Shown here piece after piece: positions 1 through 12,000 of a stretch of DNA of 63,271 nucleotides. Location: IMG/VR virus record IMGVR_UViG_2939521961_000016; one strand, written 5' to 3'. A program made the position numbers. Positions within the stretch are counted from its first letter, which is position 1; the number at the start of each line of letters is the position of its first letter. This DNA is from a virus. Taxonomy: Duplodnaviria > Heunggongvirae > Uroviricota > Caudoviricetes.

Positions 1-3000
1 ATGGACAACGACAAAATTGATCAACACAGCGACGAAATTGAAGTTGAGAGCGAAGAAAAAGAGCGCGGCAAAAAAATAGAAATAGATGAAGACCGACTCC
101 CCTCCCGGGCGATGGCAATTCATGAGCATATCCGCCAGGATGGTGAAAAAGAGCTGGAACGCGACGCAATGGCGCTACTGTGGTCAGCCATTGCGGCGGG
201 TCTGTCGATGGGCGCTTCGCTACTGGCAAAAGGGATATTTCATGTCGAACTGGAAGGAGTGCCAGGCAGCTTCTTACTGGAGAATCTCGGTTATACCTTT
301 GGTTTTATTATCGTCATTATGGCCCGCCAGCAATTATTTACCGAAAACACCGTGACTGCGGTACTACCCGTCATGCAAAAACCGACAATGAGCAACGTCG
401 GCTTACTTATGCGATTATGGGGCGTCGTGCTGCTGGGTAATATTCTCGGGACAGGTATTGCTGCATGGGCATTTGAATATATGCCTATCTTCAATGAAGA
501 AACTCGCGATGCATTTGTCAAAATCGGCATGGATGTGATGAAGAACACCCCCAGCGAGATGTTTGCCAACGCGATCATTTCCGGCTGGCTGATCGCCACT
601 ATGGTTTGGATGTTTCCTGCAGCGGGTGCGGCAAAGATTGTGGTGATTATTTTGATGACCTGGCTTATTGCACTGGGTGACACCACCCACATCGTTGTCG
701 GTTCTGTTGAAATCCTCTATCTGGTGTTTAACGGCACGCTGCACTGGAGCGATTTCATCTGGCCCTTCGCACTACCTACTTTAGCGGGGAACATCTGCGG
801 CGGCACCTTTATCTTCGCGTTAATGAGTCATGCACAGATTCGTAACGACATGAGCAACAAGCGTAAAGCAGAAGCACGCCAAAAAGCAGAACGTGCGGAA
901 AACATTAAGAAAAATGATAAAAACCCAGCATAAATGGCGAGGGTTTAAGCAATCGAGCGGCAGCGTACTTACCCCGCAGTCCATTAGCGGGTATACTCAT
1001 GCCGCATTGTCCTCTTAGTTAAATGGATATAATGAATATAAGTATTAAGTCATTGATTTAAATACAGAAAGTACCGAAATAATCGTCATATCAGTACCCA
1101 TTTATGTACACATCCCGTTAAACATGCCCCGCACTTCCGTACGGGGCATGTTCTTTACTCCACTCCCACTTTTTTGTTGTACTCGCGGTTAAACCGATCC
1201 ACGGCAATTTTCATATCCCGCTCTACCGATTTCACCATCGCCGACTGTTGCGCCAGACTGAGAGTACTGTCGGCGTAAATGGCATCACGCTGTTTACGCA
1301 AATCCTTCAGTCTCTTCCGGGTATCCTGCATAAGCCCGTTCATCGACAATTTTCCGTTGTTCTCGTCAATGAACGCCGTTCTTTCTGCACCGGTCAGACT
1401 CTTCAGCTCTGCGTGATACTGCGCGACCTCCGTCATCCGGTCGTACATCTTCTGCTGGTCAGCATACGGCATCACCTCACCTGAAATTTTCCCCAGGAAG
1501 GGCACCTGCTGTTCCGGTATATCAATACCATTCAGCGATTTCACCGCCGCATCCGTGGTTTTGGAAATGAAGCGCCCTGTCCCTCCGGAGATATAGTCAA
1601 TCCAGAATTTCAGCGATTCCGGTGTGATATCCACCGCGCCGGGACGATACTGGCTGCCACCTGAGAACGCATTCAGCCAGGATGCAAACGCCTTGTACGC
1701 TTCTGGCGTTGAACGTCTTCCCAGCTGGCTGTCAGGTTTTGGTGCACCAAACGGTATGTTCTCCTGGTAAATCTGCGCCCCCATGAAGTTTTCATTCATG
1801 GCAAGGTTCGCAAACGGACGCAGAATGGTCGGCGCTGCATTTTTCAGCAATGCCCCGGACAGTGTTTCCGACGTTTCACTGCCCACAGGACTGAATGCCC
1901 CAAGCACACCACCAACAACATTACCGGCAGCACGTGAAGCGGTCAGGTCGCCCGCTGCCACCCCTTCGGCTGTGTGACCAAGCAGGAAGAAAACGTTGTA
2001 CCCGTAAGGCAGAGGAATACTCCAGTACTCTCCGGCCTTGCCCCCGAACACCGATTTCATAATGACGAGGTTACGCTCTTTCACATGAGACGGCACCTTG
2101 TCATACCAGTTAACCCCGTCATCATCCTCCCCCGCCACGCTGCGGTTAAGCGAGCCAAGCAGATAACCCGCTCCCACAGCTGCAAGCGCGATTTTCTGCG
2201 GTACATTGAGATTCTTCCAGCGAAGGCGCTCCAGTAACGGCCCGTCGCCATTAAGATGTCCGAGCGTTCTCACCAGGTTTGCGGTCCCCTGAATGCTGGC
2301 GTTGGCGAACATGTACAGCGAGTTCATCAGCGCTCCCTGCTCACCACGACGGTTAAAGTTCACCGTCATGTTTTTGGCAAGGGACGCCGCCTGCTGGCGT
2401 GACAAACCGGCATCACGGGCGTGTTTATAGGCAGAAAGACGCAGAGCGTTTTCAACCGCCCCGTTGGCATCCTCGACAAGGTTAAGGAACGAATTCCATG
2501 CACCGATACTCTGGCCTTTCCATCCTCCCTTCGCCAGCGATACAAGGCGATCCATTTCCTTCTGCTGGCCTTCAAGATCACCCATGTTAAACCAGCCGGT
2601 TTTACCTCCGTCCTCAACAAACTCTTTCCACACCTTCTGCCACTGCGCACCGTTGCCCGTGAGGGTTTTACCACGCAGACTGGCGTATACGGCAGACATG
2701 GCAGACCGGCTGTCTTTCACCACAGCCAGTGCGGATAAGTTATCCAGCCCTTTCAGTTTGCCGTCGCTCCTTCCCTGCTCCGCCTTCAGGTTCATCACCG
2801 CCGTCTGCACGTCACGGATGAAGTTACTGACCAGGAATTCCGGGTTATACGACGTGTTCACCGTTGCCAGGAAGCGGTTAACTTTCCCCAGCGTGCGGAT
2901 TACGGCGTTACTGGTTTCCGGTCCCATATTCTTCATCGCACGCATCAGGCGCGGATCATGGAGTTTGATGTAGTACGTTTTGCCGTTCTTTTTGGTGGTG

Positions 3001-9000: not shown

Positions 9001-12000
9001 TCGGTCATCGGCGTATTCAGCGCACGAACAGCACCCGGCGACATCTTACCGGTCAGCCATTCATCAGTGGCTTCAGCACCATCACTGACAGCCTTACCGG
9101 TTGCCTTCAGACCTTTACCGACAGTATCAGTAACCGCGTTTTTGCCATCAGGCAGGGTATCGATGACCTCATCAGCCCCCCTGCTGCCACCGGCAAAAAT
9201 ATCCTGCACAGTTGCGACACCCGGCAGCCCCATACGGCTGAACTCATTTAAAATACGCGCCCCTGTTTTTACCGGGCTCTGAATCATCGCATCACCGAGT
9301 CCACGGGCCATTTCCCCTGTTCCCCGGACGGACTGGGCGACACCTTTCCCCATAGTTGGCAATACATCGCCAAGGCTGAACGACGTGCTGTTGTCCTTCC
9401 AGCGATTGGGATCGGAGAAAAACGCATCATAGCTGTCAGTCTCGCCCGGCTGCTGAATGTTCAGGCTGTTGCGGTTCTGGTTGCCAAATTGCGCTTCAGG
9501 GCGCTGTTCATCGGAATAAGCCATACAGACTCCATAAAAAAACCCGGCACAATGACCGGGTATCAGGAAATAGTATTAACGGGAATGGTGAATTACTGCG
9601 CGTAATTCTGTTTCAGACCACGGATAAACTCAGATGCAGAGGCCGCACTATCATCTCTGGCCTGTTCCCCCCTGGCCTTTTGAATACGGAGAAAATTCGA
9701 ATACCCGTTCTCCAGCAATTTCTGATTCTGAGGCTCCAGCATTTCTGGCTGACGGGCCGCTACATTTCTGGCAAATAACAGCTTATCAGGATCATCTCCC
9801 GCCCAGTTGATAACCTGTTGCTGAAGTTTTTGTTGCTGAATTTTCTGTTGATGCGGTTGTGAACCAGTCGCAGCATAATATTCATCCACCGCAGCCTGAG
9901 CATTACCTCCATTCTTGATCGCGTCCGCCGCTACGTTGCTGGCCCCCTTCTGAAGCTCTTTCAGAGAAAGTCCCTGCTGCTTCGGCATAAAATAACCATA
10001 ATTTTTCGATATCTCTGCAAATTTGCTGCGATCCCTGACCTGAGCGATAGCCTTATCAACGGGTATCGCCAGCACGGTTTGATCATCAGGGTGCGCACTG
10101 CCGTATTCTGTTACAGGTTTATGCGCGGTGGAGCCATCGCTGTATGTGAGATCAAGGCCAATAAGTACGTACCCTTCCTGCTGCGCTGGTACGATACTGC
10201 CAATCCTGGCCTCTTTTATCGTTTTGTCCCCGGTTGAATCAGGCATGCCAATACGCTGTTGTAGTTCCGGGGCAAACACGCCGGAAAGCACATCGAGATT
10301 TTCCGGGGTATTCAGCGAATCGATCGCCATGTCCGGCTTATCACCAAAGATTTTTTGCAGGTTGATCACGGCCTGACCCGCTTTCGCTGCATAGCCTTCG
10401 TTTGACATAAGAATTAATGGATGTCCCTTTGGCAGCTGCCCGAACAGACGCGTTGCAGCCTCCTGATCGCCAGCCTCAATTGCTTTTCCAAGCGCTTCCA
10501 TTAGTGGCTGGCTATGGGCAATCATATCGTTATACTCAAGCCGTCGCTGGTTGTATTTCTGCAACTGGAGTCGTTGCTGCTCCATACCCAGTGACGCATT
10601 CCGGTAATTCTGGTTAGCGTTAAACTCCCTTTCCTTCAGTGCATAATTACGGTCGTCAACTTTGGCTCTGTAATCAAAGTTCCGCTGATCAACGTTTTTA
10701 TTATGTTCAAACTGAGACTGCGCAAACTCAAAATCGCGCTCGTTATTTTTCTGTTGCCGGGCAAGCTGTGCTTCACGCAGACCAAGCTCCTTACGACGGG
10801 TCATTGCCTGGTCAACGGTGCTGAATCCGGCAAGTAACCCCTGTGCAAATCCGCTCATTCACCACTCCTTAAAACAAAGAACCAGCAATGCCGCCAATTA
10901 CTGCTCCAGCAACAGCACCAACAGGACCACCAACGGATGCGCCAATAGCCGCCCCCGTACCAATGCCCGTACCGATATTCTGCTTGTTCTGCGCTTTCTG
11001 TTGCGCCGCCATCTGTTTGTTCGCAGCCTCAATTTCTTCACGTCGTCTGTCTGCGTCACTTATTCCCTGTAATGCCTCACGCCGCGACTGATTTGCAATA
11101 TCCAGTAAACCGTATCCCATATTGCCCCCTTACGCTGCCACCAGTTGGCCGCCAACACTCAGTTTCTGTCTTGCCGGTGCAGAAGCCCCCGTCAGAATAT
11201 TCATCTGGCGATCCTGTTCGGCTTCACGGATACCATTTTTCGCGCCAGCAATTGCCAGGGCATTACGTAACCCCAGCGTATTACTGTCGGGATTATCCGG
11301 GCGGTTTACCCCGTATCTCGCCATCTGGTTATCCTGCGCCATCTGCGCTGTACGGAGACTGGAAGTGGCAAGGCCTCCCACCCGTGCAAGCTGTGCATTC
11401 ATCAGACTGTTGTTCTCCCCAAGGTCAGCCAGCCTTGCCACGCGGGGCAAATATCTGGTTCGCCAGTCGTCGTATTGTTGGCGTGTCAGCGCTGCGGATG
11501 TCTGCCAGTCCCCCTGAGGGCGGGCTGCTCCGGTATAACCGTATCTTGCAAGTGTTTCGTATTTACCGTACTCCATAATCACAGTCTCCAGTTCTGAGCC
11601 TGATGCTGAATGGCATTAGCGCCGGTGCCAGGTGTTTTAGCACCGCCACTTCCTCCGCTACCGCCAGCCTTATGCATCGCATATGCACCTGCCGCACCCA
11701 GACCAGCGCCAACAAGAGAGGCTCGCCCCTGCTGTTTCGTAAACGCCGCCTGTGCATCCGATTTAGCTTTTGCCAGACTGCTGTCTGCCAGAGAGTTAAA
11801 ACTCTGTAACGCATCCGCCTTCTGACCAGAACCGAGAGCAGCAACATCCTGTAGCCCGGCAACATACTTATCTGCCTGCGATACCTGCCCCCGTGTGGTT
11901 GTGTCAATCTGCCCGGTTACCTGGTCACTCTGGTTCGCATTCATTACCGCATTAAAACGACCACTGGATGGGTCAACGCCGGACTGAGCAAGATTACCCG

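Follow-up and report, generated by a model that had tools for sequence, protein, structure and literature searches.

A giant virion-protein gene of a Shiga toxin-type prophage: two predicted zincin-like domains and an N-terminal module related by sequence to that of the injected RNA polymerase of phage N4

We analyzed a stretch of DNA of 63,271 nucleotides, called the window in the following, from the IMG/VR virus record IMGVR_UViG_2939521961_000016. The window carries a Shiga toxin (Stx)-type prophage in an E. coli O111-like chromosome. At one edge of the prophage lies a giant open reading frame (ORF; 1155-9524, minus strand), which starts with ATG, has 0 internal stops and encodes a protein of 2789 amino acids. 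The data suggest, with a probability of about 0.6, that this giant protein is a polyvalent protein from the interior of the virion, and that its N-terminal module and the order of its domains resemble those of the RNA polymerase which phage N4 injects.

Results

Relationship to the virion RNA polymerase of phage N4

A relationship between the giant protein and the virion RNA polymerase (vRNAP, gp50) of phage N4 was detected by profile comparison. When the N-terminal module was compared by hhalign with eight Schitoviridae polymerases, residues 175-421 of the giant protein aligned with N4 residues 218-440 (Prob 97.7%, E 1.7e-12); a second hhalign run of this module against N4 gave a Prob of 88.8% and an E-value of 2.5e-6. 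With N4 gp50 alone as the target, N4 residues ~300-439 were matched (E 5e-6). The score of this alignment was 54.9, compared with 15 +/- 3 and a maximum of 29 for shuffled sequence (z about 13). These alignments indicate homology of the N-terminal module with the lipid-binding N-terminal domain (NTD) of the N4 vRNAP. The matched stretch of N4 includes the predicted membrane-spanning helices 224-278, and the N4 NTD binds lipid and inserts into nanodiscs. Because its N-terminal part is related to that of an RNA polymerase which N4 injects, the giant protein is probably injected together with the DNA.

The order of the domains resembles that of the N4 vRNAP without its polymerase: an NTD is followed by an acidic linker, the cargo, a zincin-like domain and a helical C-terminal domain of ~900 residues. 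The N4 protein itself consists of the lipid-binding NTD, a low-complexity linker, its cargo, a HExxH domain and a helical C2 domain of 110 kDa without structural homolog; it is ejected, it is invisible in virion maps and its C-terminal region is needed for encapsidation. The two proteins thus have in common a homologous NTD with a low-complexity linker behind it, and a HExxH zincin-like domain in front of a very large helical C-terminal domain which in neither case has a known structural homolog. The two proteins are located inside the virion, are not seen in maps and are each encoded by the last gene of the virion-gene cluster. Unlike the N4 vRNAP, the giant protein has no RNA polymerase domain; searches of Pfam, NCBIfam and PHROGs did not find a single-subunit RNA polymerase family in it. 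It also differs from the N4 protein by a second zincin (CLCA_X), by the domains LPD5 and MuF_C, and by a linker which is four times longer.

Membership in the class of polyvalent proteins

The original prediction, made from the sequence of the window, had described the product as a polyvalent protein which is carried in the virion and probably ejected. This description is supported by the domains LPD5, LPD1, MuF_C and LPD38 and by the occurrence of the orthologous protein gp47 in virions of phage phi24B; ejection stays a prediction. Together with the second zincin-like domain, these four make up a set of several unrelated domains in one chain. The gene is located among the late virion genes, and the same is true for the corresponding genes of the Vibrio and Ralstonia phages. 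LPD38 is restricted to phage-type polyvalent proteins (Iyer 2017, PMC5512222). Members of this type, such as P1 DarB and the Ralstonia 'DarB-like' proteins, also combine many unrelated domains in one late product, with zincins as hub domains (Iyer 2017). The C-terminal module is also present in the giants of the Ralstonia and Vibrio phages. Unlike P1 DarB, however, the giant protein lacks the methyltransferase and helicase domains which define DarB (Pfam). The label 'DarB-like antirestriction' was rejected; only residues 2347-2677, the LPD38 region, match the DarB-like phrog_10089.

The protein gp47 of phi24B, orf71 of VT2-Sakai and the other giants of 933W-type phages (PHROG 616) are orthologs, which occupy the same end of the late operon and contain the same Pfam domains. 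PHROG 616 spans the full length of the giant protein, and its function annotation is blank. A Pfam search found no transglycosylase, lysozyme or cell-wall peptidase domain in the giant protein, and the PADLOC models of anti-phage defence matched it with 0 families. PDB sequence searches with the whole protein, and with profiles of the cargo, second zincin-like, C-terminal and N-terminal modules, gave nothing useful.

Two distinct zincin-like domains

The motifs HEWFH and HEIIHHAMEH, named in the original prediction as zincin-type signatures, are both present, at residues 1279-1283 and 1546-1550. These are 2 HExxH motifs, compared with 0.03 expected from the protein's own composition. Their reading as zincin signatures is backed by conserved families with invariant His, Glu and His and a downstream Glu helix; it needs a qualification for the second motif, in whose family HExxxH is the norm. 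In an AlphaFold2 model of residues 903-1700 (predicted local distance difference test, pLDDT, 84) each motif lies in a helix after three strands and is followed by a Glu-bearing helix, so that a peptidase fold around both motifs is predicted. On the basis of the families and the model, both domains are zincin-like, predicted metallopeptidases. The match between them is limited to 41 columns around a strand and the HExxH motif (E 0.002); they therefore belong to distinct families. Among the domains of polyvalent proteins the commonest are zincin peptidases, either with 'HExxH plus Asp three residues downstream' or with 'HExxxH' (Iyer 2017, PMC5512222).

The first domain belongs with the CLCA_X (CLCA-like) peptidases. 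The NCBIfam model of this family matched residues 1177-1432 over positions 3-245 of 250 with E 2.8e-45 and 154.7 bits, which is below the curated cut-off of 260; the domain is therefore homologous to CLCA_X but not a member as defined by NCBIfam. In an alignment of 54 sequences H1258, E1260, H1279, E1280, H1283, D1286, E1370 and E1377 are invariant. The CLCA_X family, which comes from phages and plasmids and is often found in very long proteins, has the consensus HExxHxxxD (Lenart et al. 2013); the first domain shares this motif and the nearly complete model. It also fits the common phage-type peptidase, in which strand 2 ends with a His and HExxH is followed three residues later by an Asp (Iyer 2017, PMC5512222). 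Since the CLCA_X match spans a region without Pfam annotation and LPD1, and since LPD1 bears the invariant Glu helix, LPD1 appears to be the C-terminal half of the CLCA_X peptidase domain. A biochemically tested CLCA_X member was not found in the literature on the family. The domain has no significant match to the C1 region of N4.

The cargo unit (residues 903-1445) is also found as stand-alone proteins of ~560 residues in other mobile elements. One of these, from Gemmobacter caeni (locus L005, 8001-9725), is located beside genes for TniQ, TniB and a Mu-type transposase, an H-NS-like gene, PcfJ and a large helicase. Because this copy adjoins genes of a Tn7-like or conjugative element, the LPD5-CLCA_X module is apparently used by non-phage mobile elements too.

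The family of the second domain is of another kind. A search of 1.84 billion cluster representatives with residues 1448-1740 gave 390 relatives, nearly all of which are inside proteins of 1.8-6 thousand residues. An initial count found HExxH in 7/149 relatives. On the alignment, H1546, E1547 and H1550 are invariant, with the spacing HExxxH in 137 of the 145 sequences; a deletion of one residue has produced HExxH in the enterobacterial clade, which is the only clade with that spacing. Further downstream E1602 is invariant, A1605 and A1608 are nearly so, and E1609 is nearly invariant as well (131/145). The domain matches the 'HEXXXH' clade mentioned by Iyer (2017; PMC5512222). A Pfam search with 16 members of this family gave only matches at the level of chance, for example Peptidase_M76 with E 0.12. 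A weaker match connects the second domain to the HExxH subdomain in C1 of N4 (hhalign E 4.9e-5, Prob 68%), with a score of 31.6 compared with 13.6 +/- 2.3 for shuffles (z about 8).

The ortholog gp47 in virions of phi24B

Purified virions of phi24B contain gp47, with 12,608 spectra from 422 peptides, which are distributed over the whole length and cover 93.6% of the protein; only the major capsid protein gave more spectra (bioRxiv 10.64898/2026.04.10.717836). In the cryo-electron microscopy map of the same work gp47 is absent. These data show that gp47 does not belong to the ordered parts of capsid and tail. Scaling the spectra per residue to 12 copies of the portal gives a rough value of ~16 gp47 copies per virion, that is about ten or more, in an estimate which is threefold too low for the capsid protein.

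In the gel of these virions gp47 was distributed over nine slices in total, with 58% of its spectra in the four slices above the slice of the portal peak; the virion form is therefore mostly large. The bulk of the signal migrates above 80 kDa. An attempt to map gp47 fragments from the supplement was abandoned; the peptide sheet is pooled over the gel slices and cleavage sites cannot be derived from it. The length of gp47 is stated in the preprint both as 2811 amino acids and as '>3,000 amino acids'.

Conservation and exchange of segments

Purifying selection acts on the giant gene, which is a conserved late gene. All 186 records with a close match in the phage collection cover at least 80% of the gene, with 90-99% nucleotide identity; nearly all of them are Stx-converting phages, and the genomes of the matching phages have 57-66 kb. 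By tblastn the protein is a single piece in nearly all 186 records and fragmented in a few (phi191, phi367, phi346). A general frameshift in related phages, which would have spoken against the original prediction, is thus not seen. Among complete E. coli genomes the gene is present in 426 of 5426. The ratio of nonsynonymous to synonymous substitution rates (dN/dS) in comparison with VT2-Sakai orf71 is 0.07-0.21 in all segments, including the low-complexity linker, and is lowest in the C-terminal module (0.068).

The segments differ in their divergence from VT2-Sakai. Identity is ~99% in the linker, in the second zincin-like domain and in the C-terminal module, with dS values of 0.02-0.10. It falls to 66% (dS 1.14) in residues 903-1195 (window 5940-6818) and to 84% (dS 0.49) in the MuF_C segment, residues 1701-1880 (window 3885-4423). 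This divergence of the LPD5 and MuF_C segments within a frame which is ~99% identical points to an exchange of cargo alleles among Stx phages.

The same pattern holds over larger distances. In representative giant relatives with 1.8-4.7 thousand residues the N- and C-terminal modules each keep to their own end of the chain without exception, and the middle is variable. In relatives of the C-terminal module the place of the cargo found here is taken by methyltransferase, ART-PolyVal, InPase, GGDEF, zeta-toxin or lysozyme domains; the lysozyme domain (PF00959) was found in a Salmonella relative. The original prediction had spoken of long regions without recognisable repeats. This picture has to be amended, in that these regions are organised as an N-terminal module, a linker, a cargo and a C-terminal module.

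MuF_C and the C-terminal module

The MuF_C domain, which the giant protein shares with the C-terminal part of the Mu F / SPP1 gp7 family, is predicted to have a BECR fold and to be RNase-like (Iyer 2017, PMC5512222). The head-morphogenesis domain MuF was not found in the giant protein by Pfam. The term 'MuF-C metallopeptidase' of the phi24B preprint was rejected as a mislabel; MuF_C is RNase-like, and the HExxH motifs are in two other domains.

The AlphaFold2 model of the C-terminal module has a pLDDT of 88 and a predicted template modelling score of 0.85. Two fold searches with this model gave no structural homolog among the matches listed, and N4 vRNAP chains, which are in the PDB sequence set, were not among the matches listed in either search. 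Several polar motifs are invariant or nearly invariant in 60 distant relatives of the module, namely HAPERN near residue 1971, DGGSGMT near 1989, NFNRxGE near 2389 and NASxQG near 2408. These motifs suggest an active or binding site more than a mere scaffold.

The locus and its surroundings

The late or structural operon of the prophage ends with the giant ORF; the genes for terminase, portal, major head protein and tail fibres are upstream on the same strand. The claim that a single ORF closes the structural module was confirmed, since the intact ORF of 2789 codons is the last gene of the late operon. The giant homologs of Vibrio phage D56 and Ralstonia phage Heva end the structural module likewise. 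On its other side the giant ORF adjoins host yfdC (1-933) at the edge of the prophage. Window positions 1-1300, with yfdC and the end of a gene annotated as 'LPD38 domain-containing protein', have a match of 99.6% in E. coli O111 strains. The positions of all features are collected in Table 1.

Table 1. Features of the giant ORF and of its upstream border in the window.
Feature	Residues	Window positions	Strand	Remarks
Whole ORF		1155..9524	-	2789 residues plus stop; ortholog of phi24B gp47, VT2-Sakai orf71, PHROG 616
N-terminal module	1-460	8145..9524	-	Ala/Gly-rich; weakly hydrophobic at 182-208 and 402-425; always N-terminal in related giants
N-terminal core	175-421	8262..9002	-	by profile alignment homologous to N4 vRNAP NTD residues ~218-440
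Acidic low-complexity linker	461-902	6819..8144	-	E/Q/P/R-rich; net charge -21; ~440 residues
Cargo module	903-1445	5190..6818	-	helical region, LPD5 and CLCA_X zincin
LPD5	1052-1195	5940..6371	-	Pfam match; beta-rich
First zincin-like domain, CLCA_X family	1177-1435	5220..5996	-	C-terminal part is Pfam LPD1 (1356-1435)
HEWFH motif	1279-1283	5676..5690	-	context HEWFHSLD; fits CLCA_X consensus HExxHxxxD
Second zincin-like domain	1465-1682	4479..5132	-	family without Pfam model
HEIIH motif	1546-1550	4875..4889	-	followed by HAMEH
MuF_C	1743-1834	4023..4298	-	Pfam match, E 9.7e-18; not a metallopeptidase
C-terminal module	1884-2787	1164..3875	-	mostly alpha-helical; always C-terminal in relatives
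LPD38	2472-2677	1494..2111	-	Pfam match; inside C-terminal module
Terminator-like hairpin, 7 pairs		9542..9561	-	followed by seven T at ~9535-9541; just 5' of the GGAG site of the giant ORF

A ribosome-binding site, GGAG, is located 5 nucleotides 5' of the ATG of the giant ORF. The terminator-like hairpin (window 9530-9561 with its T run, minus strand) separates the ORF from the gene of a 421-residue protein. In VT2-Sakai the annotated start of orf71 is 13 codons further upstream. The extra residues, MPGHCAGFFYGVC, are apparently the translated terminator hairpin, for which reason this start is probably mis-set. The count of cysteines in the 2789 residues of the giant protein is 0.

Just upstream of the giant ORF (window 9593-12310, minus strand) are four genes for proteins of 421, 83, 150 and 243 residues; the 83-residue protein is a Gly-zipper protein. 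Their counterparts in phi24B (gp48, an 86-residue 'bacteriocin homolog', gp50 and gp51) are all present in virions, gp48 with 1,634 spectra (bioRxiv 10.64898/2026.04.10.717836). The four small proteins are not named in the text of the preprint, and two are apparently among the contaminants which it dismisses. We regard all four as candidates for the actual conduit of the DNA. Genes for a Lom-like outer-membrane protein and membrane-associated 'moron' genes (window 13160-14602, minus strand) are embedded between those for the tail fibres and those 5' of the giant ORF.

Discussion

The finding as such is already known, in that the giant gene is an ortholog of known genes of Stx phages, that its class was described in 2017 (PMC5512222) and that the protein was seen in virions in 2026 (bioRxiv 10.64898/2026.04.10.717836). 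New here are the family to which each motif is assigned, the interpretation of LPD1 and the deletion which leads from HExxxH to HExxH. Also new are the N4-type N-terminal domain with the parallel architecture, the C-terminal module without structural match and the mosaicism of the cargo.

A mechanism can be proposed on this basis. The helical C-terminal module of ~900 residues and the zincin-like domain which stands before it in most relatives would be the constant part and would probably be needed for entry into the head, by analogy with the C-terminal region of the N4 vRNAP. At infection the protein would exit by way of the tail, its domains strung together in a loosely folded chain. The N-terminal module would then anchor it at the inner membrane, with the acidic linker of 440 residues as a tether. 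The exchangeable cargo in the middle, namely LPD5 with the CLCA_X zinc protease and the RNase-like MuF_C, would act in the cytoplasm during DNA entry; its targets could be host proteins, host RNAs or defence systems. One or both of the zincin-like domains may also cut the chain into parts.

A number of points weigh against this picture. Ejection, membrane anchoring, proteolysis and targets are predictions from sequence, models and analogy, and the CLCA_X score stays under the curated cut-off. The N-terminal match was obtained with HH-suite only; a HMMER profile search of PDB sequences, which include the full-length N4 vRNAP, misses it. In a comparison of the C-terminal module with C2 of N4 and the Schitoviridae the hhalign Prob was below 1% and the score inside the range of the shuffles, and a HMMER profile of the module gave no N4 match among PDB sequences. 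Since sequence similarity to C2 is undetectable, the parallel in the C-terminal part is architectural only. In the giant protein, unlike in most relatives, the second zincin-like domain is separated from the C-terminal module by an inserted MuF_C. Finally, the phi24B sample was stored for six months before analysis, and the smear of gp47 in the gel for this reason tells little about programmed processing.

The phi24B preprint offers another explanation, in which the giant protein forms or extends a trans-periplasmic conduit for the DNA while its metallopeptidase digests peptidoglycan to reach the inner membrane. A phage with a short tail needs such a conduit, and the giant protein is abundant and internal; furthermore it contains three weakly hydrophobic Gly/Ala-rich segments (residues 182-208, 402-425 and 2441-2463), and the NTD of N4 has been proposed to join an inner-membrane complex. 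The peptidase of the preprint, however, is MuF_C, an RNase-like BECR domain, and neither of the families in which the HExxH motifs do occur resembles cell-wall peptidases. The LPD5-CLCA_X unit also stands alone in a Tn7-like or conjugative-element setting. The domain families which replace the cargo in relatives act on intracellular targets, and the Salmonella relative has a separate lysozyme domain. Four small virion-associated proteins encoded upstream, one of them with a Gly zipper, are better candidates for the conduit. We consider this explanation unlikely. It is quite improbable that the protein is mainly an internal filler or scaffold, which organises the DNA in the head and in which the motifs are relics. 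The abundance of a protein that is invisible in the map would fit this role, as would the T=9 head of phi24B, which holds only about 60 kb, next to phage genomes of 57-66 kb. Against it stand the purifying selection in all segments and catalytic residues which are invariant over hundreds of distant relatives; an exchange of cargo among relatives suits effectors and not a filler.

Two further explanations concern the zincin-like domains themselves. According to a general hypothesis of Iyer (2017), the zincins of such proteins have no host target and cut their own chain into separate effectors, either while still in the head or once ejected. In most of the relatives compared the C-terminal module comes together with the second zincin-like domain, whatever their cargo, DdrB of P1 provides a precedent, and the spectra of gp47 extend over nine gel slices. 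Most of the gp47 signal nevertheless comes from the uppermost slices, which means that little of the virion form is processed; the N4 vRNAP, with a comparable domain, is packaged and ejected uncut, and CLCA_X occurs alone in proteins of ~560 residues where there is nothing to release. Self-processing as the main role of these domains is hence possible, albeit rather doubtful. The HExxH domains could also be something other than peptidases, for example metal-dependent nucleases of the YbeY type, HExxH oxygenases or inactive binding modules. The paper on N4 notes that HExxH occurs in radical-SAM-associated enzymes as well. The great majority of matches, however, are peptidases, and the invariant Glu of HExxH together with the downstream Glu helix fits the gluzincin pattern, which makes this last explanation very improbable.

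On a more far-reaching view, one modular 'ejection chassis' may be common to short-tailed Stx phages, N4-like phages and many podoviruses of sea and soil. This chassis would have an NTD for membrane anchoring, a zincin-like domain and, for packaging, a large helical domain, and the groups would differ in their payloads: an RNA polymerase in N4, the CLCA_X protease with LPD5 and the RNase-like domain in Stx phages, and ADP-ribosyltransferases, methylases, GGDEF domains or zeta toxins elsewhere. In the Stx phages the payload would be shot into E. coli before the genome enters, and its rapidly swapped alleles would help to decide which strains can be infected or lysogenised. We put this idea forward tentatively, at somewhat less than even odds.

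Of all genes in the phages by which Shiga toxin is spread, the giant gene is the largest. If its product is an injected protein with several enzymes, it acts in the first seconds of infection and could affect host range, escape from defence and the origin of new toxigenic strains. The link to the N4 vRNAP provides a concrete and tractable model, in which the N-terminal, zincin-like and C-terminal modules can be approached with the methods that were used on N4. Such work would give a first functional handle on two widespread families of predicted zincins and on the C-terminal domain that contains LPD38.

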